DNA from: Acidimicrobiia bacterium
GTDB taxonomy: Bacteria > Actinomycetota > Acidimicrobiia > UBA2766
Direction of reading: 5' to 3'
Length of the DNA: 64,000 nucleotides
NCBI GenBank assembly: GCA_038904395.1
Contig: JBCKKC010000001.1
Coordinates: 25,759 to 89,758 of the forward strand
The notes beneath the pieces are model-generated. The model was not told the origin of the DNA and made no database searches. It was given only the letters and a program-made list of their open reading frames with translations. Shown here one piece after another: positions 11,728-59,360 of the stretch (positions within the stretch are counted from its first letter, which is position 1; the number at the start of each line of letters is the position of its first letter). Position numbers and translations under genes: made by a program.

Positions 11728-12036
11728 GTGTCCCCACCAAAATGTGCTATAAGTAATACTATGCAGACTATTGGAGTGCGCGAATTGCGCCAGCAAGCAA
11801 GTAGATATCTGAAGCGCGTTGAGCGTGGTGAAACTATACAAGTCACTGACCACGGGCACCCGGTGGCGCTCCTGACTCCGATTCCAACCGGTAATATCAT
11901 CGAAGAGCTTATTGCGTCAGGCCAGATGACACCAGGACAGGGCGATATTCGAGACCTACCACCGCCTCTTCCACCAAAGCCCGGTCTCCCTCTACCTAGC
12001 GAGATTCTGCAAACCATGAGGTCAGATGAACGCTAG
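11728..12036 (+). CDS. Phd/YefM-family (VapB-type) antitoxin
   Basis: TIGVRELRQQASRYLKRVERGETIQVTDHGHPVALLTPI, with a ..DIRDLPPPLPPKPG..LQTMRSDER tail. The likely start is the ATG at 11761. It begins 5 bp after the fic stop. Confidence 0.65.
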   Translation: MSPPKCAISNTMQTIGVRELRQQASRYLKRVERGETIQVTDHGHPVALLTPIPTGNIIEELIASGQMTPGQGDIRDLPPPLPPKPGLPLPSEILQTMRSDER

Positions 12037-12037
12037 C

Positions 12038-12261
12038 GTAACCATTCACGTCCTCTTCCGTCATCCTGAGGGAGGCGCTAGCCGACCGTGAGGATCCACC
12101 TGTGGCGAAGCCGCAGATCCACCTGCATGTTCGATCCATTTGAATTGCTCGCTCCGCTCGCAACACGGCAAAGTCTGGATTGCCACGCCCTGCCAAAGCC
12201 CAGGGCTCGCAATGACGAAGCGCTGGTAGCGACACTCTGGCCAGGACACGTGAATGGTTAC
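12038..12261. mobile_element. MITE-like repeat element, copy E3 (full length, inserted into vapC)
   Basis: Both terminal repeats are present (GTAACCATTCACGTCC at 12038 and GACACGTGAATGGTTAC ending at 12261). It starts 2 bp after the antitoxin stop, where a vapC start (ATGA overlap) would be expected. Confidence 0.8.
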
Positions 12262-12436
12262 ATCCAGGGCTTCTCGACACTGCGGGCCTAATAGGACCGC
12301 CTGGACTTCGGACGCTGGATGCAATCCACCTGACAGCTGCGCAAAAGTTGGGACCTCGGTAACACGAGTTGTAACATACGACGCTCGGCTGGCCCAGGCA
12401 GCCCGCACAACAGGATTCTCCGTCGACTCTCCATGA
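12262..12436 (+). pseudogene. vapC: vapC C-terminal remnant (frameshifted)
   Basis: Two frames read ..LRTLDAIHLTAAQKLGPR* and ..VTRVVTYDARLAQAARTTGFSVDSP*, both typical PIN C-terminal segments. The N-terminal roughly 70 codons are missing and replaced by the MITE. Confidence 0.5.
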
Positions 12437-12579
12437 CCGATCAATGATCCGCATGAGCGATGCCCGCCCCTCCCCTCTATGCCATTTGGCCTATTTTGCC
12501 ACTTAGCGTGGGCCATTTGGACCCTTCGTGCTGTGAGCGCGCTTATGATTGAAAGGTCATGAGCCAAAGGGGGCAATTG

Positions 12580-12864
12580 ATGGCAGAAGAAATGACCACC
12601 ATCGATGGGTGTAAGATCCGCCACGGTGACCGGGTTCCGTCTGAGATCGTAGAAGATTGGTCTCGACAGGGGCTCATCAAGCGGGTCAAGAACGGACGGG
12701 GGTACTATACGAAAGGTCTGATGCTGGTTCGGGATAGACACGCACCAGGATATGTTGCGATCAATCCTTCCCAAGCCAGGCTCGTACCAATGCCGGTGGA
12801 AACACTAGAAAACACGCCGGCTGAGCTGATTTTTAGCGACAATGCTAAGCCCTCCAGACTTTAG
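12580..12864 (+). CDS. hypothetical protein (94 aa)
   Basis: Good SD AAAGGGGG lies 7 nt upstream of ATG. No recognisable domain. Convergent with the response-regulator gene. Confidence 0.4.
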   Translation: MAEEMTTIDGCKIRHGDRVPSEIVEDWSRQGLIKRVKNGRGYYTKGLMLVRDRHAPGYVAINPSQARLVPMPVETLENTPAELIFSDNAKPSRL

Positions 12865-38545: not shown

Positions 38546-38614
38546 TGGGGGTCCTGAATCGGCGACTCGGCTAGTATGCGACGCAGTGTCTGGCGAATCA
38601 GGGGAGCACGCGCT

Positions 38615-40213
38615 GTGGGAACTGCAACACTCACTTCATCACTCGATAGTCGATCTGCGTCATACGAGCAAAACTGCGCTCAGATGCAGTCCCTCATCGA
38701 GGTGGTCCTGGAACAGCAACAACTAGCTCTCGCCGGCGGCGGCGAAAAGTACGTCGAGCGCAATCGAGCTAGAGGCAAACTCCTACCCAGAGAACGGATC
38801 GAGCTTCTCGTTGATCAAGACACCCCCTTCCTGGAACTATCGCCGCTGGCGGGTTGGGGCACGCAAGACACCGTGGGTGCGTCGATCGTGTCGGGCATTG
38901 GGGTCGTGTCAGGCGTCGAGTGCGTGATAATGGCCAATGACCAAACGATAAAGGGTGGGGCAACAAATCCGTCAACCGTGGCTAAGTCTTTGCGTGCCAT
39001 GGATATTGCGCTCAAGAACCGTCTACCTCTTGTCAACTTGACCGAGTCCGGCGGTGCCGACCTACCCCGCCAATCTGAAGTGTTCGTGCCCGGCGGGGCT
39101 AGCTTCCGGAATTTGACCCAGCTCTCGGCCGCCCGAATCCCCACGATCACACTGGTCTTCGGCTCGTCCACGGCTGGTGGGGCATACATTCCGGGCATGA
39201 GTGACTACACGGTTTTCGTGCAAGATCGGGCCAAGGTATTTTTGGGCGGTCCCCCTTTGGTGAAGATGGCCATCGACGAAGATGCCGATGAAGAATCGCT
39301 CGGAGGCGCCGAAATGCACGCCCGCAAATCTGGGCTTGCCGACTACCTGGCGGTTGACGAATTCGACGCTCTGAGACTCGGGCGCCAGATTGTGGCGCAT
39401 CTGAACTGGCATAAGCAAGGACCCGGCCCCACTTTGGCGGCCGACGATCCGACCTTTTCACCCGAGGAGCTTCTCGGAGTCGTCCCAACCGACGCTCGTG
39501 AGCCGTTCGAAGTGAAGGAAGTGATCGCTCGAATTGTCGACGGATCTCGATTCGAAGACTTCAAGGGCCCTTATGGCACAACGCTTGTTTGCGGCTGGGC
39601 CTCAATCTGCGGCTTCCCAGTGGGAATTCTTGCCAACAACGGGATCCTATTTAGCGAGGAGTCTCAAAAAGGCACTCAGTTCATCCAACTGTGCAACCAG
39701 ATGGACATTCCGCTTCTCTTCATCCAGAACATCACCGGTTTTATGGTCGGCACTCGCTACGAGCAAGGCGGGATCATCCGTGACGGCGCTCGTCTCATCA
39801 ATGCCGTATCTAATTCGAGTGTGCCGCATCTGACTTTGATGGTGGGAGCCAGTTACGGGGCGGGCAACTATGCCATGTCAGGGCGGGCCTTCGATCCCCG
39901 CTTTGTGTTCTCATGGCCGAATCATCGCATCGCCGTGATGGGCGGAAAACAGCTTGCCGGAGTCTTGTCGATCGTGCAACGCCAGGCCGCCGAGGCCGCC
40001 GGGCGAGACTTCGACGAAGACGGCGACGCCGCAATGCGAGCCATGGTAGAGAACCAAATCGACCAAGAGTCAAGCGCCCTCTTCGCCACCGGCCGCCTCT
40101 GGGACGACGGAATTATCGACCCTCGAGACACCCGCACCATCCTCGGCATTGCCCTCTCCGCCACCCACAGCGCCGAAGTCAAGGGCGCCACTGCCTATGG
40201 AGTGTTCAGGTAG
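38615..40213 (+). CDS. acyl-CoA carboxylase carboxyltransferase (beta) subunit, methylcrotonyl-/geranyl-CoA carboxylase-like
   Basis: Colinear with MCCase beta (..YEQN..M..LGGGEKYVERNRARGKLLPRERIELL.D..PFLELS..AGW). I chose the GTG at 38615, which has SD AGGGGAG upstream. The ATG candidates at 38576 and 38684 are alternatives. Confidence 0.8.
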   Translation: MGTATLTSSLDSRSASYEQNCAQMQSLIEVVLEQQQLALAGGGEKYVERNRARGKLLPRERIELLVDQDTPFLELSPLAGWGTQDTVGASIVSGIGVVSGVECVIMANDQTIKGGATNPSTVAKSLRAMDIALKNRLPLVNLTESGGADLPRQSEVFVPGGASFRNLTQLSAARIPTITLVFGSSTAGGAYIPGMSDYTVFVQDRAKVFLGGPPLVKMAIDEDADEESLGGAEMHARKSGLADYLAVDEFDALRLGRQIVAHLNWHKQGPGPTLAADDPTFSPEELLGVVPTDAREPFEVKEVIARIVDGSRFEDFKGPYGTTLVCGWASICGFPVGILANNGILFSEESQKGTQFIQLCNQMDIPLLFIQNITGFMVGTRYEQGGIIRDGARLINAVSNSSVPHLTLMVGASYGAGNYAMSGRAFDPRFVFSWPNHRIAVMGGKQLAGVLSIVQRQAAEAAGRDFDEDGDAAMRAMVENQIDQESSALFATGRLWDDGIIDPRDTRTILGIALSATHSAEVKGATAYGVFR

Positions 40214-40871: not shown

Positions 40872-41180
40872 GATTCGCACTCCCGTCATTGGAATTTGGG
40901 CACATCTCAGTCATCGGCGTGGATCACGGAAACTTTAAGGAAATCTTGAGATTCTTTTAGTCGTTTCGATTGTCACTGATTTTGGGAATCCGGCCGGCTC
41001 GGGTTTTGAGCGATCTTCATTGGGCACACCTAGGGTGAACCCAACGCTCCACGAGCAGAACCCTCAGTTGACCGCTTCCAACAGACTCGGTTGACTCCCC
41101 CACCCCAAGACGCTTGCGCGACTCGCAGGAGTGGGCTAGCTTGAGGTCCAACGAGGTAGGCGCTGTTGGGAAACTCGACG

Positions 41181-43505
41181 ATGAAGACTCTGTTGGTTGC
41201 GAATCGCGGCGAGATTTGCCAGCGGATAATGGTGACAGCTCAATCGATGGGGATCCGCTGTGTTGCTGCCTATTCTGATTCTGATGCCCACGGCCCGTTC
41301 GTCACCCAAGCCGACCTGGCCGTAGCTCTCGGCGGTACACATCCACGTGATTCTTACCTGAGCATTGACAAAATTCTCGCAGCCGCCCACTCAAGTGGGG
41401 CTGATGCAATCCATCCCGGCTATGGCTTCTTAAGCGAAAATGCCGATTTTGCCCAGGCGTGTCTTGATGCCGGTATCACCTTCGTGGGACCAACTCCTGA
41501 AGCAATTCGGATAATGGGCAACAAGCTGACAGCAAAAGAGCTTGTCCGCCCACTGAAGGTCCCAACCCTCGAGAGCGTCACTGTAACTGACGACCCCGGA
41601 GACTGGCTAGCCGCTGCTGAAGCTATGAAATTTCCCGTCTTAGTGAAGGCTGCTGCCGGTGGTGGCGGCCGAGGCATGCGAATAGTTGATGCGCCAGCCG
41701 ATCTAGCCGAGTCTATTGAGAGTGCCCAACGTGAAGCAGAGGCCGGTTTTGGTAACAGTTCTGTCTTTATCGAGCCATATTTGCCAAACTCCCGCCACAT
41801 CGAGGTTCAAGTCTTTGGTGACACCCGGGGAAATCTCGTTCACCTCTTTGAGCGTGAGTGTTCAATCCAACGGCGTCACCAGAAAGTGATTGAAGAGAGC
41901 CCCTCAATTGTTCTCTCGGCTGAGACTCGCAAGGCAATGACAGATGCAGCCCTGGCTGTGGCAGCGTCGGTGAAATATGTCGGAGCTGGAACGGTTGAGT
42001 TTTTGGTTGATGGGACGGACTTCTATTTTCTCGAAATGAACACTCGACTCCAAGTTGAGCATCCCGTCACCGAGATGCTGACTGGACTCGATCTGGTTCG
42101 CTGGCAGCTAGAGGTGGCTCAGCAGTTGCCATTGCCGCTCACCCAAAGCGAGATTGTGAGCAACGGTCATGCAATAGAGGCTCGACTCTGCGCCGAGATT
42201 CCTGAGCAAGACTTCCTTCCGACGACCGGCCACTTTCACCGCTATTGGCATAGACAACCCGAGGGGGTGCGCTTTGACGACGGGGTCATTTCGGGAAGCC
42301 AGATGTCGAGCCACTACGACAACCTGCTTGCCAAAGTTGTAGCCCATGGGGAATCACGCCCCGAAGCCATCGCCCGATTGATTCGAGCCTTGCAGACAAT
42401 GCAGTTGCATGGTGTGGCCACAAACCGTGATTACTTGGTGGCGATCCTACAAACCGAAGAGTTCCAACGGGGCGAAACACCGACCACTTTCCTAGAACGG
42501 AATAGTGACAAGGTACTGGGCAATGTCGCCAGGATGTCTGCGCCGCTGACAGCGGCACCGAGTGTCGACACCGACACTCGGCCTGATGCGCCCGATGCCG
42601 AGCAGGGCGAACGCCCCTCCGGGGATCGTTCCCTGCACGCCAGCGCTGCGGCCATCTTTATGGCATTGCGTCGCAAAGCCGACTCTCCGACACAGTCCTT
42701 TGCTCCGCTCGGTTGGCGCAATATGCCGAGCCAGCCGAACACATGCCAATTCAGTCACGTCGACACGTTGTCGCGATCAGAACACATATATTCGGTCAGC
42801 TATTCGATGGATCGAAACGGCGATTTTCACGTGAGTTGCGACCGGGCGATAGACGACGGGGTGGCGACCGCTGAGAGCACTGCCAGCGACCCCGTCAAGG
42901 TTGCCCCGACCCCGACCCCGACCGAGAAGGTCAGAGTTGCTTTTTTCCCGTCATTGCGAGGAGGCGTTAGCCGACGAAGCAACCTAGTCCATGACTCACG
43001 TCACGAAGACACAGGTCACGGACTAGGTTGCTTCGCTTCGCTCGCAATGACGGGGGAGGAACGTGGGTGGTTACCTACGAACTGTGGGGAAATTACGCTC
43101 GAGGTCGGCGGGGTCCGTCAGCACTTCTTCGTCAACATCGTCGGCGACAATGTGTACATCAACGACGACCAGTGCCAAAGCGATTTTCGTTCATTGGGCC
43201 GCCCAGGCGAGGGCGCATCCGCTCAGACCAAGCAACTAGCAAGCACTGCCGGCCCAACTTCGCCGATGCCTGGCCAGATCGTTGCCGTTGAAGTTAGTCT
43301 CGGCGACTCGGTCACAGCAGGACAAACCTTAGTAATCCTCGAAGCCATGAAAATGGAGCACCGCATCGAAGCAGCCGCCGACTCTATCGTCGCTGAAATT
43401 CACGTCGAAACAGGTCAATCCGTTGATGCACATCAACCGTTGATTACCCTCGGCCCCCCTTTAGACTCAGCTCCAGTCATCACAAACGAGGTCGAAAATG
43501 CCTGA
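41181..43505 (+). CDS. acyl-CoA carboxylase alpha subunit (biotin carboxylase + BCCP), carrying an in-frame MITE-derived insert
   Basis: MKTLLVANRGEI.., an ATP-grasp biotin carboxylase domain, and a C-terminal biotinyl domain EAMKMEH. It is about 100 aa longer than typical because of the linker insert. Confidence 0.85.
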   Translation: MKTLLVANRGEICQRIMVTAQSMGIRCVAAYSDSDAHGPFVTQADLAVALGGTHPRDSYLSIDKILAAAHSSGADAIHPGYGFLSENADFAQACLDAGITFVGPTPEAIRIMGNKLTAKELVRPLKVPTLESVTVTDDPGDWLAAAEAMKFPVLVKAAAGGGGRGMRIVDAPADLAESIESAQREAEAGFGNSSVFIEPYLPNSRHIEVQVFGDTRGNLVHLFERECSIQRRHQKVIEESPSIVLSAETRKAMTDAALAVAASVKYVGAGTVEFLVDGTDFYFLEMNTRLQVEHPVTEMLTGLDLVRWQLEVAQQLPLPLTQSEIVSNGHAIEARLCAEIPEQDFLPTTGHFHRYWHRQPEGVRFDDGVISGSQMSSHYDNLLAKVVAHGESRPEAIARLIRALQTMQLHGVATNRDYLVAILQTEEFQRGETPTTFLERNSDKVLGNVARMSAPLTAAPSVDTDTRPDAPDAEQGERPSGDRSLHASAAAIFMALRRKADSPTQSFAPLGWRNMPSQPNTCQFSHVDTLSRSEHIYSVSYSMDRNGDFHVSCDRAIDDGVATAESTASDPVKVAPTPTPTEKVRVAFFPSLRGGVSRRSNLVHDSRHEDTGHGLGCFASLAMTGEERGWLPTNCGEITLEVGGVRQHFFVNIVGDNVYINDDQCQSDFRSLGRPGEGASAQTKQLASTAGPTSPMPGQIVAVEVSLGDSVTAGQTLVILEAMKMEHRIEAAADSIVAEIHVETGQSVDAHQPLITLGPPLDSAPVITNEVENA
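42947..43075. mobile_element. MITE-like element (short palindromic variant) inserted in-frame in the carboxylase alpha linker, copy E13
   Basis: CCGTCATTGCGAGGAGGCGTTAGCCGACGAAGCAACCTAGTCC ... GGACTAGGTTGCTTCGCTTCGCTCGCAATGACGG, then GGAACGTGGGTGGTTAC. No stop codon. Encodes ..SLRGGVSRRSNLVHDSRHEDTGHGLGCFASLAMTGEERGW.. Confidence 0.75.
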
Positions 43506-43521
43506 CCTTTCCGGCCCCCCC

Positions 43522-43753
43522 GTAACCATTCACGTCCCCTCAGTCCGAGGGGTGCTACCAGGCCTTCGTCATTGCGAGCCCTGGGCTCTGGCAGGGCGTG
43601 GCAATCCAGACTTTGCTATGTTGCGAGCGCAGCGAGCAATTCAAAATGGTTCGATCATGCGGGTGGTCTGCGGCTTCGCCACAGGATGGATCCTCACGCC
43701 CTGGCTGACGCCAGGGCTCAGGATGACGGGAAGAGGGAGCTGAATGGTTAAAC
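43522..43753. mobile_element. MITE-like repeat element, copy E14 (full length, accA-atuA spacer)
   Basis: GTAACCATTCACGTCC .. CGTCATTGCGAGCCCTGGGCTCTGGCAGGGCGTGGCAATCC .. TTGCGAGCGCAGCGAGCAATTCAAAA .. GGTCTGCGGCTTCGCCACAGGATGGATCC .. CAGGGCTCAGGATGACGGGAAGAGGGAGCTGAATGGTTAAAC. The atuA ATG lies inside the right terminal repeat. Confidence 0.8.
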
Positions 43754-45603
43754 CGTTGCGTATCGCAAACTGCAGCGGCTTTTACGGTGACCGATTGTCG
43801 GCAGCTCAAGAGATGGTCACCGGCGGGCCGATTGACGTTCTGACGGGCGATTGGCTGGCTGAGCTGACCATGCTGATCTTGGCCAAGGACCGGATGAAGG
43901 ATCCAGCACGTGGCTATGCAAAGACGTTTCTTAAACAGCTTGAAGTTGTCTTGGGGACCTGTCTCGATAGCGGGATTCGAATTGTGAGCAATGCCGGAGG
44001 GCTTAACCCGGCCGGCTGCGCGGAAGCTATTAGCGAGCTGGCTCAGCGCCTGGGACTTACCCCTACGGTGGCTTTCGTGGGCGGCGACGATCTGATCGGC
44101 CAACTCGACCAGCTTCAGGCCAGCGGCGAGGAGTTGATCAACCTGGATACAGGCGAACACTGGGCCCAGATGGGCAAAGCGCCCATAACAGCCAATGCTT
44201 ACCTGGGCAGCTGGGGAATCAGCACCGCTCTGGGCCAAGGGGCGGATGTAGTCGTGACAGGCCGAGTGACAGACGCATCGCTTGTTGTTGGGCCAGCAGC
44301 GTGGCACTTTGACTGGGCTCATGACGACTGGGATCAACTCGCGGGCGCTATCGTTGCCGGCCACGCAATCGAGTGTGGCACTCAAGTGACGGGCGGAAAC
44401 TATTCGTTCTTCGACGAAATCCCTAACGCTCACAGATGCGGTTTCCCGATAGCCGAAGTGTTCAGCAACGGGTCATCGATCATTACAAAACATCCCGGCA
44501 CCGGTGGGGCTGTCTCGATAGGCACAGTAACAGCCCAGTTGGTTTACGAGATTGCTAGTCCGAGTTACGCCAATCCCGATGCCACTGCCCTTTTCGATAC
44601 AATCACCCTCGAAACAGTTGGCCCCGATCGGGTGCAAATTTCGGGGGTGCGGGGCACGCCACCGTCGCCAGACCTCAAGGTGGGCATCAACTATTTGGCC
44701 GGGTTTCGCAACTCGATGACGTTCTTGCTCACGGGGCTGGACATCAGCGAAAAGGCCCAACTCGCCCAAGATAGCCTGTGGGCTCAGTTCCCCGAAGGCC
44801 CGAACCATTTCGAATCAGTTTCTGTAGACCTCATCGACTCCGCCCGGCCAAACCCGCCAAGCAATCAAGACGCAATTTCGTCCCTGCGGGTGACGGTCTC
44901 AGATCCTGATGCAAGCAAGGTGGGGCGGGCTTTTTCATCAAAAGTCGTCGAGCTCGCCCTCGCTAGCTATCCGGGCTTTACCCTCACCACTCCCCCGCAA
45001 GACTCGACCCCATACGGAATTTTTTGGCCCACAACCATTGACCGCAGTCACGTAGATGAATTCGTCGAAATCGGTGGAACTCGCTACCCAATTAGCCATC
45101 CGCCTGCCCCCATGCAGTCATTGCGAGCGAAGCGAGCAATTCTCCCCCGTCATCCTGAGCCCTGGCGCCAGCCAGGGCGTGAGGATCCAGGAATCCGAAT
45201 TTTGCGAGCGAAGCGAGCAAGTCGAAACGGATCCCGAGACCTGCCACTCGGAGTGGTCATGGGCGCGCGTTCCGGCGACAAGGGTGGAAACGCTAACATT
45301 GGCGTGTGGACTTCCGATGTCCGCTGTTATGAATGGCTCGACGATTTTCTGTCGATCGACAAGTTGAGGGAGCTAATGCCCGAGACAAAGTCCCTCGAAA
45401 TTCATCGCTACAGGTTGGCCAACCTTAACGCCCTCAACTTTGTCGTTGTTGGTCTCCTCGGCCGTGGCGTCGCAGCCTCAACCCGTATCGATCCTCAAGC
45501 AAAGGGCCTGGGCGAATACTTGCGAGCAAAAGTGGTGCCGCTACCGGTCGAGCTGCTGTCAGATGCAGGCAAGAAGGGTCTACCGACGCAGGCCGCTGAC
45601 TAG
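43744..45603 (+). CDS. AtuA-family (acyclic terpene utilisation, DUF1446 + C-terminal domain) protein, carrying an in-frame MITE-derived insert
   Basis: N-terminus ..LRIANCSGFYGDR.. and C-terminal ..ARSGDKGGNANIGVW.. are typical of AtuA. A 40-codon insert lies between the two conserved regions. Confidence 0.7.
   Translation: MVKPLRIANCSGFYGDRLSAAQEMVTGGPIDVLTGDWLAELTMLILAKDRMKDPARGYAKTFLKQLEVVLGTCLDSGIRIVSNAGGLNPAGCAEAISELAQRLGLTPTVAFVGGDDLIGQLDQLQASGEELINLDTGEHWAQMGKAPITANAYLGSWGISTALGQGADVVVTGRVTDASLVVGPAAWHFDWAHDDWDQLAGAIVAGHAIECGTQVTGGNYSFFDEIPNAHRCGFPIAEVFSNGSSIITKHPGTGGAVSIGTVTAQLVYEIASPSYANPDATALFDTITLETVGPDRVQISGVRGTPPSPDLKVGINYLAGFRNSMTFLLTGLDISEKAQLAQDSLWAQFPEGPNHFESVSVDLIDSARPNPPSNQDAISSLRVTVSDPDASKVGRAFSSKVVELALASYPGFTLTTPPQDSTPYGIFWPTTIDRSHVDEFVEIGGTRYPISHPPAPMQSLRAKRAILPRHPEPWRQPGREDPGIRILRAKRASRNGSRDLPLGVVMGARSGDKGGNANIGVWTSDVRCYEWLDDFLSIDKLRELMPETKSLEIHRYRLANLNALNFVVVGLLGRGVAASTRIDPQAKGLGEYLRAKVVPLPVELLSDAGKKGLPTQAAD
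45113..45233. mobile_element. MITE-like element fragment inserted in-frame in atuA, copy E15
   Basis: GTCATTGCGAGCGAAGCGAGCAATTC then CCCCGTCATCCTGAGCCCTGGCGCCAGCCAGGGCGTGAGGATCCAGGAATCCGAATTTTGCGAGCGAAGCGAGCAAGTC, which is identical to the left half of copy E6. Translated as ..MQSLRAKRAILPRHPEPWRQPGREDPGIRILRAKRASRNGSRD.. Confidence 0.8.
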
Positions 45604-45612
45604 GAGGCAATC

Positions 45613-46767
45613 GTGCAATTCACCGACGAGCATCTCTTGTTTCGTAAGACTGTGCGTAGCTTCTTAGAAAACGAGGTCGTGCCTCACATCGATGAGTGGG
45701 AGGAAGCCGGCCAGTTCCCCGCACACGAGCTCCTGCCAAAACTCGCCCAAATCGGAGCGCTTGGCCTTGAGTATGACCCTAAATATGGTGGCCAAGGGGC
45801 CGACCACAGTTACACCGTGATTTTTGCTGAGGAACTTGGCCATTGCCTGTGCGCCGGCGTGGCGATGGGAATCAGCGTCCAGAGCGACATGGCCACACCG
45901 TCGCTGGCCACATTCGGTAGCGAATATTTGAAGGAAACCTACCTCAAGCCGGCCCTGACGGGCGAAGCCGTAGTCTCAATCGCCGTTACTGAGCCCGACG
46001 CCGGTTCCGACGTGGCATCGATCCGCACAACCGCCGTGCAAGATGGCGATTCGTGGGTCATCAATGGCACGAAGCTCTATATCACGAACGGTTATCAGGC
46101 CGACTGGATCTGCCTAGTAACCCGTACTTCCGATCCGATCCCGGGCCAGCCCTATAGCGGCATGGCCCAAATCATTGTGCCCACGAACACGCCTGGCTTC
46201 AGCGTGAGCCGCAAGTTGCGCAAAATGGGCAACTTGTCATCCGACACCGCCGAGCTAGTCTTCGACGATGTCCGCGTGCCGCTCAACCACGTGATCGGCG
46301 AAGATGGGCAAGGCTTTCAGCAACAAATGTTGCAGTTCCAGCGTGAACGGCTCATGGCTACCTACATGACAGTGAGCGGCATGCGAGTTGCCCTCAAGCG
46401 CACGATCCAATACCTAAAAGACCGTCACGCTTTCGGTAAGCCCCTTATCACAAATCAGTATTTGGCCTACGAGCTGGCCGAACTCACCGCAGAAGTCGAT
46501 CTGCTGCGCGAATACAGCTATGCATGCGCAGACGCAGTAATGCGGGGCGAGGATGTCACTCGTCAGGCAACGATCGCGAAACTTAAAGCAGGCCGACTAG
46601 TTCGGCGAGTAGCCGACACTTGCATTCAATATCATGGCGGTATCGGCTATATGGAAGAGACCTGGACCTCACGCTACTACCGCGATGCCCGGCTGCTATC
46701 GATCGGCGCCGGCGCCGACGAAGTCATGCTCCGTATCCTCACCCAAATCTACGGAATCCACGCTTAG
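45613..46767 (+). CDS. acyl-CoA dehydrogenase (isovaleryl-/citronellyl-CoA dehydrogenase-like)
   Basis: ACAD N-terminal, middle (..ITNG..) and C-terminal domains. 384 aa. Context with the carboxylase genes. Confidence 0.85.
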   Translation: MQFTDEHLLFRKTVRSFLENEVVPHIDEWEEAGQFPAHELLPKLAQIGALGLEYDPKYGGQGADHSYTVIFAEELGHCLCAGVAMGISVQSDMATPSLATFGSEYLKETYLKPALTGEAVVSIAVTEPDAGSDVASIRTTAVQDGDSWVINGTKLYITNGYQADWICLVTRTSDPIPGQPYSGMAQIIVPTNTPGFSVSRKLRKMGNLSSDTAELVFDDVRVPLNHVIGEDGQGFQQQMLQFQRERLMATYMTVSGMRVALKRTIQYLKDRHAFGKPLITNQYLAYELAELTAEVDLLREYSYACADAVMRGEDVTRQATIAKLKAGRLVRRVADTCIQYHGGIGYMEETWTSRYYRDARLLSIGAGADEVMLRILTQIYGIHA

Positions 46768-46795
46768 CCAGCTCTTAGTGAACCATTAAGGTCCC

Positions 46796-46989
46796 CCACA
46801 CTCCGTCATTGCGAGGAACGAAGCAATCCAGGTTTTACAGTCTTGCGAGCGCAGCGAGCAAATTCAAATGGATCGAGTCTGATGATAGAGGCCTGCTCGC
46901 TACGCTCGCAGAATATTTAAAGTCTAGATTGCCACGCCCTGTCAAAGCCCAGGGCTCGCAATGACGGGGTGGGGGACGTGAATGGTTAC
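46796..46989. mobile_element. MITE-like repeat element, copy E16
   Basis: CCGTCATTGCGAGGAACGAAGCAATCCAGG .. TTGCGAGCGCAGCGAGCAAATTCAAA .. AGATTGCCACGCCCTGTCAAAGCCCAGGGCTCGCAATGACGG .. GGGGGACGTGAATGGTTAC. Confidence 0.8.
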
Positions 46990-46992
46990 TAC

Positions 46993-48672
46993 TTACCCGG
47001 CCGGTTCGGGTTTGGGAATGCGGAAGGCAAAGTAGATTGCGATCGCTCCAAAGAGGGCCGCTAGGGCGACGGCAAGTCGGGCCGCCTGGGCCACGGCCTC
47101 CCGCACGACCTTTAGGGCCGCGTTGAAGTCACGATTTTGGTTCAGGTCTGTCACAGTCAAGTTGCTCGAGGTAATTTTCGGGTGGATTTCGGCCTGGAAA
47201 TGGATTGCCTCTTCGACTTGCTGGCGGTCCTGAGGACTCAAAGACGGGACGGTCGTGAGCTTGGCCTGAGCGGACGAGACAGCCACAGTAGTGAGGACGA
47301 GGGTTAACAACGCGGAGCACACTCCGCCAGCGATCAATCGAGCTGAGACTTGCGTTCCGCTCGCTACTCCCGACAGCTCCGATGGCACTCCGAAAAGCAG
47401 GATATTGACCAGGCCCGAATAACAGATACTCCAGGCGGCACCTTCCAGAAACAGCGTCGGGGCCAGCCACCAGCCTGATCCGTTCGGCGACAAAAGAGGG
47501 ACTGTCAACAACACGGCGATGGGCTGGACTATCACACCAACGATGATCAGGCTACGGGCTTGGAAGTGCCTTAAGAGCCGAGGAGTGAAGGGCCCGCCAA
47601 CGGCCATGCCCAGTCCCAGGGGCAACAGAGTCAGGCCCGCCTGCAGTGGGTTGTAGCCGAGAACATACTGGCTATATAGGGGGACGAGCAAGAGCAAGCC
47701 AAAGACAGACCCCGTGATGAAGGATGCTGCCAAAGTGCCGTTGGTGAAGCTGGCAATTTTGAAGAGTTTTGGATTGAGGAAAACCTCTCGGCCACCGCGG
47801 AATCTCCGATTCTCAACAAGAGCGAAAACGACCAAAGCCAAGACCGCCAGTATCAACAAGACCGGAATTATCGAAAGGCGGCCAGGAGGCCGCCAACCAA
47901 GCAATGAGGACGTGGTTATTGCTCGCCACCAACCTAGCTTTGGGCCCTCTTGCAGGCCAAGCACCAAGGTACCGATACCGAGAATGAGCAAGACCGTGCC
48001 CACGATGTCGTACTGACCTGCCCCGCCTTTTTTGGCGCTGGTGTCAGGGCGATTTTCTACCACGAACATCGACACCCCAATCACGCAAATAATGGCGATG
48101 GGCACATTGATATAGAAGGCCAAACGCCACGAAAAAGCCGTTGCCGCTTCGCCACCAATCAGGGGCCCGAGCGCTGCTGCCCCACCAATTACGGTTGCCC
48201 AAATCGAAAACGCTAGCGCCCGTTTTGGCCCGGCCGGAAACTCGAGATTGAGTAGCGTCAGCGAGGCCGGCGCCAAGGTCGCCAAGACCAAACCCTGCAG
48301 AACACGCCCCACCATAAGGATCAGGAAGTTCGGTGCTGAACCCGTGACCAAGCTGCCAAGGGCGAACAGGACCATCGATGCCACCAAGACTTTCCGTGCC
48401 CCAACAGCATCGACCACTTTACCCATTACCACCATGAATGAAGCAGCCACCACTAGATAGATGGTGACAATGAGCGTGGCGCTGTTGGCATCGATGTGGA
48501 GGTCAGTGACGATCGAGGGCACAACAACATCGGTGACAGTCAGGTCGAGAACCACTATGAGCAGCGACAACATCAGGAACGTAAAACCCAGCCACACGTT
48601 CTTAGGCAGACTGGCCGACTCGCCAGCGGTGCTCGCAGATGCGGATGTCTGCCTGCTTCCGGATCCAGCCAT
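46993..48672 (-). CDS. MFS transporter (DHA2/EmrB-like, 14 TMS)
   Basis: MFS motif A-like G(R/K) loops (..MVGRVLQGL..), about 14 predicted TM segments, 559 aa. Confidence 0.8.
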   Translation of the reverse strand: MAGSGSRQTSASASTAGESASLPKNVWLGFTFLMLSLLIVVLDLTVTDVVVPSIVTDLHIDANSATLIVTIYLVVAASFMVVMGKVVDAVGARKVLVASMVLFALGSLVTGSAPNFLILMVGRVLQGLVLATLAPASLTLLNLEFPAGPKRALAFSIWATVIGGAAALGPLIGGEAATAFSWRLAFYINVPIAIICVIGVSMFVVENRPDTSAKKGGAGQYDIVGTVLLILGIGTLVLGLQEGPKLGWWRAITTSSLLGWRPPGRLSIIPVLLILAVLALVVFALVENRRFRGGREVFLNPKLFKIASFTNGTLAASFITGSVFGLLLLVPLYSQYVLGYNPLQAGLTLLPLGLGMAVGGPFTPRLLRHFQARSLIIVGVIVQPIAVLLTVPLLSPNGSGWWLAPTLFLEGAAWSICYSGLVNILLFGVPSELSGVASGTQVSARLIAGGVCSALLTLVLTTVAVSSAQAKLTTVPSLSPQDRQQVEEAIHFQAEIHPKITSSNLTVTDLNQNRDFNAALKVVREAVAQAARLAVALAALFGAIAIYFAFRIPKPEPAG

Positions 48673-48759
48673 TATGCGCCAATCCCCCCGGTATGAAATA
48701 CCAGGGAAGTGTAGCCGGTCGGGCCAGCACCCCGTGGCGAGAGTGTCGCTACCAGCTTT

Positions 48760-49024
48760 ACGTCATTGCGAGGAGCCAGAGGCCACGCACGACCCCAATC
48801 GCGGAGACACTCCAACCCTCCCGTCATTGCGAGCCCTGGCTCTGCAGGGCGAAGCAATCCAGACTTTAAATATTTGCGAGCGCAGCTCGCAATTCAAAAT
48901 CGATCGAACAGTCGGTTGGTCTGCGGCTTCGCCGCAGGTGGATCCTCACGGTCGCTGCGCTCCCTCAGGATGACGAGAGGGGGGGTAGCCCCCCTCAGGA
49001 TGACGGGAGGGGTGAATGGCTACC
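48760..49024. mobile_element. MITE-like repeat element, compound copy E17
   Basis: Two left arms (CGTCATTGCGAGGAGCCAGAGG.., CGTCATTGCGAGCCCTGGCTCTGCAGGGCG..), centre TTTGCGAGCGCAGCTCGCAATTCAAAA, ..GGTCTGCGGCTTCGCCGCAGGTGGATCC.., a duplicated CCCTCAGGATGACG end, and terminal repeat GGGGTGAATGGCTAC. Confidence 0.8.
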
Positions 49025-49037
49025 GGCTGGGTCCACC

Positions 49038-50750
49038 CTAGGCAGCAACCTGAACGATGCGGCTGCGGCGCACATCGTCTTTGTAGTTGGCCCGAATTTT
49101 GCGCAGCTCAGATTTCACTACCTTACGCCGGACGGCCTCATCGCCGATAATTTCCGCCAATCCCTTGATCTCTGCGGCGAGGGCTGCGAATTCTGCGCGC
49201 AGCTGGCTGCCTTCGAGGTTGGTTAGCTTGCGTAGTTGCATGTCGACGATAGCTTGGGCTTGGACTTCGTCAATCGTCAACAGTTCTTGCAAAGCCGTTT
49301 TGGCAGCAGGCACATCCGGAGACCGCTTGATGGTCGCAATGACCTCATCGATGGCATCCAACGCTTTGATCAGCGCACTGACAATGTGTTGTCGCGCTTG
49401 GGCCTTGCCGAGTCGAAACTGGGAGCGGCGCAGCACGACTTCCATGCGGTGGTCACAAAATGCCGACAAGATGTCGACCACGGTGCAAATTCTGGGCACT
49501 CCGTCAACAAGCGCCCGCATACCCACCGAAAAATTATCTTCGAGGCGGGTGAGCGTGTAGAGCTCGGCAAGAGTCGCCGCTGGATCCTGACCCCGCTTCA
49601 CGATTACTTGCAGCTCCTGGCCGGTCTTGTCGGTAGCGTCAATGACGTCTGACACTCCTTGCAGTCGCCCCTTCTTCACGTATGCCACAATCGCTTCGGC
49701 AACGTCAGCAACGGAAACCGACGGAGGCAGGCTGCGGAAACTGAGCTTACTGGCCCCACGTGTGTGGGACTCTTGACTAACTCGGGCCCGCAGTTTAATG
49801 CGTCCCTGGCCACTCGAATAAGCAGCGACGATCCCGTTCGCCTCAGCCCCGGCATCGACTTGGGGCTTTGGCTTGCCACGCTTGGTTGTCTTCGAATCGC
49901 CAAACTCGGGAATGATGTCACAGCCTGTGGCAAAGTCGGGCCCGGGCAATTTGGCCATTATTTGCTTGATCGAAGCCTGCGGTTTATCCAGAATCAGCAA
50001 GACCGCATCGATCACCTCGAGCGGATTGTGCGGAGGGATGTTGGTTGCCATCCCCACTGCAATACCTGCCGCGCCGTTGACTAAGAGCTGGGGAAATGCT
50101 GCTGGCAGTACTGTCGGTTCTTTGCTTTCGCCGTCATAGTTGGGGACGAAGTCGACCGTGCCTTCTTCGATGTCGGCCAGCAGGGCCATTCCGGTCTCAG
50201 ACATTCGGCACTCTGTGTAGCGCATCGCAGCCGGCGGAAAACTGGGCGAGCCAAAGTTGCCTTGGCCATCAATCAAGGGCACATATTGAGAGAAGGGTTG
50301 GGCCATGCGCACGAGAGCATCGTAGATAGCTTGATCACCGTGAGGGTGATATAGACCCATTACCTCACCCACCACCTTGGCACACTTGCGAAAAGGTCCG
50401 GGCGGCCGCACGCCACTAGTATGCATACCCCACAGAATCCGCCGCTGGACCGGTTTCAGACCGTCACGCACATCAGGTAACGCCCTAGCAACGATGACCG
50501 ACATCGAGTACTCAAGATAGGAGTCTTCCATCTCGCGGGTAAGCTCACGGGTCTCGATGGCGAGGCTGCGATTGCTCGTATCGCCTCGAGTGCGCCCAGC
50601 CTTGACACGGGGCCTTTTCGGCGCCGGAGGCTCAACCAGCCCGGAGGGTTCAGCCAGGTCGGAAGGATCGGGTGAACCAGGCGACTCCTCGGCCTCATCC
50701 ACAACATCAAATAGCGTGGCGTCACCGCCCTTGTTCTTGCCTTTGGACAT
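49038..50750 (-). CDS. type IIA topoisomerase A-subunit homolog lacking the C-terminal beta-pinwheel domain (TopoM-like)
   Basis: GyrA/ParC N-terminal breakage-reunion domain with the active-site AMRYTE tyrosine, tower and coiled-coil, ending at about residue 570 with no CTD. It has a 70 aa acidic/Pro-rich N-terminal extension. Confidence 0.8.
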   Translation of the reverse strand: MSKGKNKGGDATLFDVVDEAEESPGSPDPSDLAEPSGLVEPPAPKRPRVKAGRTRGDTSNRSLAIETRELTREMEDSYLEYSMSVIVARALPDVRDGLKPVQRRILWGMHTSGVRPPGPFRKCAKVVGEVMGLYHPHGDQAIYDALVRMAQPFSQYVPLIDGQGNFGSPSFPPAAMRYTECRMSETGMALLADIEEGTVDFVPNYDGESKEPTVLPAAFPQLLVNGAAGIAVGMATNIPPHNPLEVIDAVLLILDKPQASIKQIMAKLPGPDFATGCDIIPEFGDSKTTKRGKPKPQVDAGAEANGIVAAYSSGQGRIKLRARVSQESHTRGASKLSFRSLPPSVSVADVAEAIVAYVKKGRLQGVSDVIDATDKTGQELQVIVKRGQDPAATLAELYTLTRLEDNFSVGMRALVDGVPRICTVVDILSAFCDHRMEVVLRRSQFRLGKAQARQHIVSALIKALDAIDEVIATIKRSPDVPAAKTALQELLTIDEVQAQAIVDMQLRKLTNLEGSQLRAEFAALAAEIKGLAEIIGDEAVRRKVVKSELRKIRANYKDDVRRSRIVQVAA

Positions 50751-59053: not shown

Positions 59054-59127
59054 GCTCGAGTAGCTCAGTTGGCTAGAGCGCTGCCCTTACAAGGCAGATG
59101 TCGGGGGTTCGAGTCCCTCCTCGAGCA
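59054..59127 (+). tRNA. tRNA-Val (anticodon TAC)
   Basis: Cloverleaf with acceptor GCTCGAG/CTCGAGC, D-arm TAGCTCAGTTGGCTAGAGC, anticodon stem CTGCC/GGCAG with loop CTTACAA, T-arm GGGGGTTCGAGTCCCTC, discriminator A, and an encoded CCA. Confidence 0.85.
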
Positions 59128-59134
59128 CCATTTC

Positions 59135-59360
59135 CCCTCCGTTATTGCGAGCGTAGCGAGCAATTCGAAACTGACCCACCGTATCAGTTGGTCTGCGGCT
59201 TCGCCGCAGGTGGATCCTCACGGTCGCCTAGCGGCTCCCTCAGGATGACGAACGGGGGGGGCTTCGCCCCTCCCGCTGCACTCACGACTTGCTCGGGGGC
59301 AGGCTCTGCTTCGCTACGCTCGCAATGAGTGAGGGGCGGCTGGGCCGCCCCTCACTGTAC
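59135..59360. mobile_element. MITE-like repeat element, copy E18 (immediately 3' of tRNA-Val), ending in a 12-bp GC hairpin
   Basis: CCGTTATTGCGAGCGTAGCGAGCAATTCGAAA .. GGTCTGCGGCTTCGCCGCAGGTGGATCC .. CCCTCAGGATGACG .. TTCGCTACGCTCGCAATGAGTGAGGGGCGGCTGGGCCGCCCCTCAC. Confidence 0.75.

Follow-up and report, generated by a model that had tools for sequence, protein, structure and literature searches.

A truncated CGTC-tagged REP dimer in the inter-domain linker of an AtuA-family gene from an Acidimicrobiia bacterium

Introduction

Repetitive extragenic palindromes (REPs) tagged with the tetranucleotide CGTC were surveyed in five phyla by Di Nocera, De Gregorio and Rocco in 2013 (PMC3733652), a survey in which the Actinobacteria are never mentioned. 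Here we describe a repeat of this kind that lies in frame within a gene of the AtuA (acyclic terpene utilisation) family, in a stretch of 64,000 nucleotides from an Acidimicrobiia bacterium (GCA_038904395.1, contig JBCKKC010000001.1, positions 25,759 to 89,758). This stretch is referred to below as the window, and all coordinates are counted from its first letter.

According to the survey, CGTC REPs are found mainly as head-to-head dimers, that is, with the tags outside, and these dimers tend toward conserved spacers, often holding small stem-loops. They reside mostly between convergent or co-directional genes. Intragenic REPs, both CGTC and GTAG, occur as well, the dimers and groups encoding 20–30 amino acids (aa) and the clusters 43–82 aa. 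The CGTC REPs have no dedicated transposase, and no enzyme specifically mobilising them is known (PMC3733652). Two Rickettsia palindromic elements (RPEs) of R. conorii belong to the same superfamily, RPE-6 being CGTC-1 and RPE-4 being CGTC-4. In-frame insertion of REPs and RPEs is already established; what is new in the present case is the host phylum, which is outside the 2013 survey, and the distinct architecture of the modules.

Results

The repeat segment in the AtuA gene

The AtuA gene (43744–45603, plus strand) is an intact open reading frame (ORF) of 619 aa, as seen from the ORF list, the translation and the Pfam matches. The N-terminal domain, PF07287 (aa 5–442, 43756–45069, plus strand), scores 551.7 bits and is modelled with high pLDDT, and the C-terminal AtuA_ferredoxin domain, PF23544 (aa 503–595, 45250–45528, plus strand), scores 61 bits and opens with the conserved GARSGDKGGNAN motif. 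Both scores are above the gathering thresholds, which places the protein in the AtuA family. The reading frame stays open through the repeat segment, which encodes ...PMQSLRAKRAILPRHPEPWRQPGREDPGIRILRAKRASRNGSRDLPLG..., about aa 458–497 (39–40 residues), within the gap between the two domains. An initial annotation made from the sequence alone had proposed an in-frame copy of a palindromic repeat in this linker, at 45113–45233, and the open frame with a Pfam domain on either side bears this out. The sequence quoted there is indeed repeat DNA, with the start moved to 45116/45117; our best estimate of the repeat-derived span is 45116/45117–45233, that is, 117–118 nt.

The closest relative of this segment is an intergenic copy, referred to as E6 (26232–26425, plus strand), in which a partial module precedes a complete head-to-head dimer. 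In the pairwise alignment against 26200–26450, the core of the AtuA copy matches 26263–26344 at 82 of 82 nucleotides, running uninterrupted from 45145 (CCCCGTCAT...) to 45226 (...GCAAGTC). Beyond the core, 7 of 10 positions up to 45233 are identical, and then the similarity ends. Over 89 nt the two copies are 96% identical, while the remaining copies show 61–81% identity to the reference, so the near-identity to the left half of E6 noted in the initial annotation is confirmed. At no more than three mismatches, the window has six occurrences of the 43-nt hairpin core, against none expected from 100 shuffles.

The segment consists of three parts. The first is a short REP module with a degenerate tag (45116–45143, plus strand), found in the motif scan and reading AGTC-ATTGC GA GC GAA GC GA GCAAT-TCT; it encodes ..QSLRAKRAI.. 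and has the body type of the short modules at 46804 and 62232. Its DNA hairpin is weak, −3.4 kcal/mol, no better than in shuffled sequences. The second is a long CGTC-tagged module (45148–45189, plus strand), CGTC / ATCCT GAG CCCTGG CGCCAG CCAGGG CGTG AGGAT / CCA, where the motif scan places the tag at 45148–45151 and the CCA tail at 45187–45189. This module encodes RHPEPWRQPGREDP, exactly matches 26266–26307 and, on the minus strand, 24123–24165, and folds into a hairpin of −13.2 kcal/mol (z = −3.2). The third part is the conserved dimer spacer, of which only the left half is present (GGAATCCGAATTTTGCGAGCGAAGCGAGCAAGTCGAAACGGATC; 45190–45233, plus strand), as delineated by the alignment of 17 copies and the pairwise alignment with 26200–26450. 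The AtuA copy lacks both the right-hand REP module and the small hairpin of the spacer, CTGCGGCTTCGCCGCAG, in these two alignments. It is a truncated dimer, retaining only the left half, with an extra short module before it. An additional GTCATTGCGAG start is likewise present about 32 nt upstream in E6, so this arrangement is common to the two copies.

The truncation is reflected in the folding. E6 forms a single long rod of −99.8 kcal/mol (z = −8.4); in the AtuA remnant nothing but local hairpins is left (−51 kcal/mol over 141 nt, z = −2.9). Two of the three sense frames of the segment are open, as is one of the three antisense frames. Compatibility with the frame is a modest filter, passed by roughly one in five insertions, and presents no striking coincidence.

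The linker of the AtuA protein

The AtuA protein is 57–63% identical to 27 aligned homologues and keeps every residue invariant in the family. The linker is hypervariable among these homologues both in length and in sequence, and no sequence resembling the repeat peptide is seen in any of the 27. This alignment had been suggested in the initial annotation as a check on the insertion; it provides no orthologue with an empty equivalent site, the best homologue being 62–63% identical. Only one NCBI contig is known to encode this exact protein, and among 8000 homologues the runner-up is again 62–63% identical.

Measured from G[VI][YF][WV]P to GARSGDKGG, the two conserved anchors, the linker spans 77 aa in this protein and 56–115 aa in 113 homologues. 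With the 39–40 repeat-encoded residues subtracted, the linker is reduced to 37–38 aa, that is, 18–19 aa below the shortest of the 113. Since the repeat-free linker is shorter than in all these homologues, native linker was probably lost too. The segment had initially been described as an insertion, which is correct in that repeat DNA is present in the linker, but a pure insertion would not produce these lengths. As judged from the sequence comparison, the repeat probably replaced the native linker, by insertion plus deletion, rather than being simply added to it.

The repeat-encoded peptide is strongly basic, with a net charge of +8 and pI of 12.0. The charge of the whole AtuA linker, +6, is the most positive among 114 proteins (mean −1.8, SD 3.2, maximum of the others +4). 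In the AlphaFold model, built with the homologue alignment, the flanking domains are confident (pTM 0.85), and the only long low-confidence stretch is the repeat-encoded linker, with pLDDT below 50 at aa 458–487 and 489–491. The search with the 41-aa insert in a set of 5.8 billion proteins yielded no candidate with enough shared words, and the PDB sequence search with AtuA yielded no solved relative.

The repeat family in the window

The window contains about 21 repeat sites, whose spans add up to roughly 3.3 kb, or about 5% of its length. The motif scan produced 43 matches that were judged to be genuine modules; 16 stray matches were excluded. The tag is CGTC in 40 of the 43 modules, AGTC in two and TGTC in one, and the CCA tail is present in 37. 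All stems open with A-T pairs, ATCCT... or ATTGC... closing with ...AGGAT or ...GCAAT, respectively. The general grammar is CGTC-AT...AT-CCA, the modules being mostly paired with the tags outward around a conserved spacer. The unit derived from the 17-copy alignment, about 150–200 bp, comprises a left hairpin module, the spacer (TTGCGAGCGnAGCGAGCAATTCAAAATGGATCGA...), the small hairpin CTGCGGCTTCGCCGCAG and an inverted right module. Fifteen dimers are complete, with tags outward and lengths of 104–199 bp (mostly 147–199 bp), and have the spacer core TTGCGAGCGnAGCGAGCAATTCAAAATGGATCGA...CTGCGGCTTCGCCGCAG in common.

Two types of modules can be distinguished. In the long ones, with a body of 30–35 nt, a 5-bp outer stem is followed by an asymmetric GAG/CGTG internal loop, an inner stem of 5–7 bp and a loop of 4–6 nt. 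The short ones, with a body of 20–22 nt, have a 9-position stem with a tandem G.A (5 bp, the tandem G.A, 2 bp). The inner stems co-vary, CCCTGG/CCAGGG being replaced by CCCAGG/CCTGGG, a compensatory change.

When the sites were mapped on the ORFs, 19 of about 21 proved to be intergenic, and the two intragenic ones lie in variable inter-domain regions. As the window is gene-dense, this distribution clearly points to the removal of most genic insertions by selection.

The spacer orientation in the 15 complete dimers tends to agree with that of the enclosing or nearest gene (about 10 versus 3); the tally is weak and gives a weak hint at an RNA-level or transcription-linked bias. A right-half REP dimer (59128–59265) lacking the left module directly abuts the 3' end of the tRNA gene at 59054–59127 (Rfam, 72.8 bits). 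REP modules are also situated between three consecutive ORFs with sulfotransferase domains (22054–24216, minus strand; 24247–25170, plus strand; 25302–26216, plus strand). The N-terminus of the 720-aa sulfotransferase-domain ORF crosses REP modules (24122–24205), and its start is probably over-extended. Several ORFs of 80–240 aa located largely in or across REP dimers are probably spurious (43498–43743 and 48461–48973 on the plus strand, 11996–12454 and 12061–12774 on the minus strand).

Assignment to the CGTC-tagged REPs

The label given to the element in the initial annotation was MITE, for a miniature transposable element with inverted repeats. It is justified insofar as terminal inverted repeats do exist: the 15 dimers end with CGTCAT[CCT/TGC]GAG ... 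CTC[AGG/GCA]ATGACG. Target-site duplications were found in none of the 15, with no direct repeat of as little as 1 nt at the boundaries of the tags; the flanks of the dimers are instead partly inverted-complementary. The true ends may sit about 10 nt further out, so that this test is non-exhaustive. No transposase domain was detected in the 34 ORFs of the window that were scanned. Rfam, applied to the whole window at the gathering scores and to 43500–47000 at E ≤ 1, yielded tRNA only and no match to a repeat. A better label is that of a head-to-head dimer of CGTC-tagged REPs, similar to an RPE.

In their sequence, the elements match the grammar of the CGTC-tagged REP superfamily (PMC3733652). 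They have the unpaired tag, described there as CGTC, TGTC or CCTC, A-T pairs in the first two stem positions and the CCA tail. They mostly form head-to-head dimers with a conserved spacer (the described range is 20–100 bp) that contains a small stem-loop. Like the CGTC REPs, they are mainly extragenic, near gene ends, with occasional in-frame intragenic copies, and are not accompanied by a transposase among the ORFs scanned. They differ from CGTC-1 to CGTC-4 in the modules themselves: instead of the 8–9 bp stems and 4–5 nt loops of these families, the long modules have an internal loop followed by an inner stem-loop, and the short ones have the tandem G.A. Hence the repeat would be a new family inside the superfamily, outside the four described. 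Assignment to the REPIN/RAYT system is not supported: the modules have CGTC in place of the GTAG tag, and the scanned ORFs include no Y1 transposase.

Gene neighbourhood and the second in-frame copy

The AtuA gene belongs to an Atu/Liu-like cluster that also comprises a carboxyltransferase gene (38576–40213), a gene for a biotin carboxylase/biotin carboxyl carrier protein (41166–43505) and an acyl-CoA dehydrogenase gene identified by Pfam (45613–46767). Intergenic head-to-head REP dimers are situated between the biotin carboxylase gene and AtuA (43567–43728, plus strand) and 3' of the acyl-CoA dehydrogenase gene (46804–46966, plus strand).

The biotin carboxylase gene contains the second in-frame copy, a complete CGTC...GACG palindrome of 104 nt (42949–43052, plus strand) that encodes ..PSLRGGVSRRSNLVHDSRHEDTGHGLGCFASLAMTG.. 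between the biotin carboxylase domains, which end at aa 445, and the biotinyl domain, which starts at aa 698. It folds with −38.5 kcal/mol (z = −9.2) and, when aligned with 24 homologues, faces gaps in nearly all of them. The presence of in-frame copies in two adjacent genes, claimed earlier from the window alone, is thus upheld.

Elsewhere in the window, the GyrA-like ORF at 49038–50750 (minus strand) is only 570 aa long, ending with ..RRSRIVQVAA*. In the 830-aa GyrA of the nearest relative, a C-terminal domain of about 306 aa follows exactly at the point of this stop. About 16–25 nt past the stop begins a cluster of CGTC REP modules (48761–49022), and the next gene encodes an unrelated MFS transporter. 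The short GyrA is explained either by repeat-associated loss of the C-terminal domain or by an assembly mis-join at the repeats. The same protein has an 18-aa insertion (..GDSKTTKRGKPKPQVDAG.., aa ~283–301, 49890–49950) relative to its closest relative; the inserted sequence bears no likeness to the REP family.

The repeat outside the window

The GyrB of the host is 71% identical to the closest proteins, which come from metagenome-assembled genomes (MAGs) of Acidimicrobiia. In the two nearest relatives by GyrB, 22 kb of each (44 kb in total) contains neither the GTCAT[Y][S][Y]GAG motif nor an AtuA gene. Metagenomes were scanned twice, for the spacer architecture and for the exact long module, without a match in either case, and BLAST of the reference copy against plasmids gave none either. 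The literature search with strings of the repeat sequence retrieved unrelated primer matches only.

The scan of genome contigs with the module shell retrieved unrelated MAGs sharing nothing else than the hairpin shell, and BLAST of the window against these loci yielded a single 45-nt match. The outer shell with different inner stems is seen in MAGs labelled Pseudomonadota, Gammaproteobacteria and Saccharibacteria; that is, the shell CGTC-ATCCT-GAG...CGTG-AGGAT-CCA is kept across phyla with the inner stems co-varying. One AT-rich MAG labelled Pseudomonadota, CAZJPB01, has many elements of about 215–260 bp (for instance, L005 793–1028, L013 3131–3346, L017 5781–6001). As in the window, the outer shell of the CGTC REP modules that form their inverted ends, about 45 bp long, is CGTCATCCTGAG...CGTGAGGATCCAGG. 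The inner stem, GCGC GATCCAA GCGC, is different and the middle is AT-rich; otherwise there is no similarity to the window.

Discussion

Origin of the repeat-encoded linker

We consider it probable that a CGTC-REP dimer entered the linker DNA of AtuA, that deletion trimmed its right half together with native linker, and that the remnant, when translated, serves as a disordered and neutral tether. A non-autonomous palindrome would have landed in DNA encoding a disordered, hypervariable linker, and one or more deletions would have removed the right half of the dimer, keeping or restoring the frame and dropping the long unstable palindrome. The native linker DNA lost along with it would probably amount to about 55 nt or more. 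The ribosome would then read the remnant as 39–40 strongly basic, unstructured residues making up most of the inter-domain tether, and these may be tolerated because the AtuA linker is without sequence constraint. Mobilisation is presumed, by analogy with REP-associated tyrosine transposases (RAYTs) and GTAG REPs, to depend on an enzyme recognising hairpins in single-stranded DNA.

Several observations weigh against this scenario. There is no close orthologue or empty-site allele, so the insertion is inferred rather than seen, and the two metagenome scans produced no matches; the ancestral length of the linker is extrapolated from distant homologues. The short module at the 5' end of the AtuA copy has both the tag (AGTC) and the tail (TCT) degenerate, and the modules depart from the stem and loop sizes of the four described CGTC families. 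The contig is repeat-rich and apparently metagenome-derived, a setting in which local mis-assembly is conceivable. Finally, expression and function of the AtuA protein across the repeat are predicted from the gene sequence.

The most serious alternative, still doubtful in our opinion, concerns the age of the event: the insertion may be old, the 82-nt identity having arisen from recent gene conversion or ectopic recombination with an E6-type copy rather than from recent transposition. It is compatible with the insertion and trimming of a REP dimer as described above. The mosaic pattern of identity fits it well, as the perfect core is flanked by an upstream module wholly unlike the upstream part of E6 and by ten nucleotides with three mismatches; many possible donor copies are situated within 20 kb; and the loss of both the native linker and the right half implies several events and hence time. 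On the other hand, a truncated fresh copy with a nearby deletion would yield the same pattern, and there is no independent dating of the insertion. The event had originally been taken as recent; the near-identity does indicate that the sequence was recently copied or homogenised, but conversion of an older insertion fits it equally well. A different possibility, which we regard as improbable, is that the gene is a decaying pseudogene, or that the repeat acts at the RNA level, as a processing site, a stabiliser or a translational pause, the peptide being incidental or not made at all. REPs are generally held to act as RNA elements at gene ends, the segment retains a strong local hairpin, and the weak orientation bias of the dimers follows transcription; but the full-length ORF with all family-invariant residues, the strong Pfam scores and the confident two-domain model are not expected of a pseudogene, and the RNA role receives no support from Rfam, even at E = 1. 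The role of a terminator was ruled out, since no terminator-like site was found in the insert.

A repeat, or its truncated form, might also have been threaded into the AtuA linker by the assembler. The abundance of repeats, the recovery of the exact protein from the single NCBI contig and the REP cluster beside the oddly short GyrA gene, which could signal a mis-join at repeats, make such an artefact conceivable in this contig, yet the two flanks follow on from each other as they should in a single gene, without a change of frame or of domain order, a result that a chimeric join would rarely give, and the AtuA copy has features not seen at E6, namely the extra short module and the diverged 3' end. 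Hence we consider the artefact very unlikely. The resemblance of a native linker to the repeat could be due to convergence or chance, AtuA linkers being hypervariable and frequently rich in Pro and Arg, but the identity over the entire 82-nt core to an intergenic copy, the recurrence of the hairpin core where shuffles predict none, and a charge beyond that of any homologous linker effectively refute this explanation.

Comparison with other in-frame repeats

The RPEs are also palindromic selfish repeats lying in frame in unrelated metabolic genes and encoding an extra peptide compatible with the fold. Their host is a reduced, obligate intracellular alpha-proteobacterium, unlike the non-reduced, GC-rich (about 57%) host considered here; and while an RPE adds a surface loop, the AtuA copy is a truncated dimer replacing a linker. 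The link to the RPEs drawn here is through the common grammar of CGTC REPs (PMC3733652). The QMITE1 and QMITE2 repeats of Coxiella burnetii resemble the present family in overlapping genes, sometimes in frame, and in encoding very basic peptides (with a pI of about 12.4, against 12.0 in the present case), but they are described with terminal inverted repeats and direct repeats, and no target-site duplication is observed here. REPINs, doublets of GTAG REPs served by the RAYT, a Y1 HUH transposase, similarly are doublets of hairpin modules with a conserved unpaired tetranucleotide, and provide a plausible mechanistic analogy, the recognition of hairpins on single-stranded DNA. The tag is different, CGTC rather than GTAG, and neither RAYT nor any other transposase was found among the ORFs scanned in the 64-kb window.

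Implications

For annotation, repeat-encoded segments and spurious ORFs will recur in this genome and inflate the gene calls. In-frame survival of selfish palindromes in enzymes is best known from Rickettsia; here it is seen in a GC-rich, Acidimicrobiia-like genome and involves a distinct variant of CGTC REPs. The AtuA copy is, probably, a clear example of a repeat replacing an inter-domain linker beyond merely lengthening it. Copies identical over 82 nt, the density of about 0.7 modules per kb, and the absence of the repeat both from the searched contigs of public metagenomes and from 44 kb of the two closest relatives sampled may be taken as signs that the lineage carries a currently or very recently active population of CGTC REPs, whose basic peptides could be exapted as linkers. 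We offer this as a tentative and rather unlikely extension of the data. If it is true, the enzyme mobilising CGTC REPs, which has long been missing, could come to light in the complete genome, and the repeat peptides of two adjacent Atu/Liu-type enzymes could be exapted linkers, not neutral passengers.

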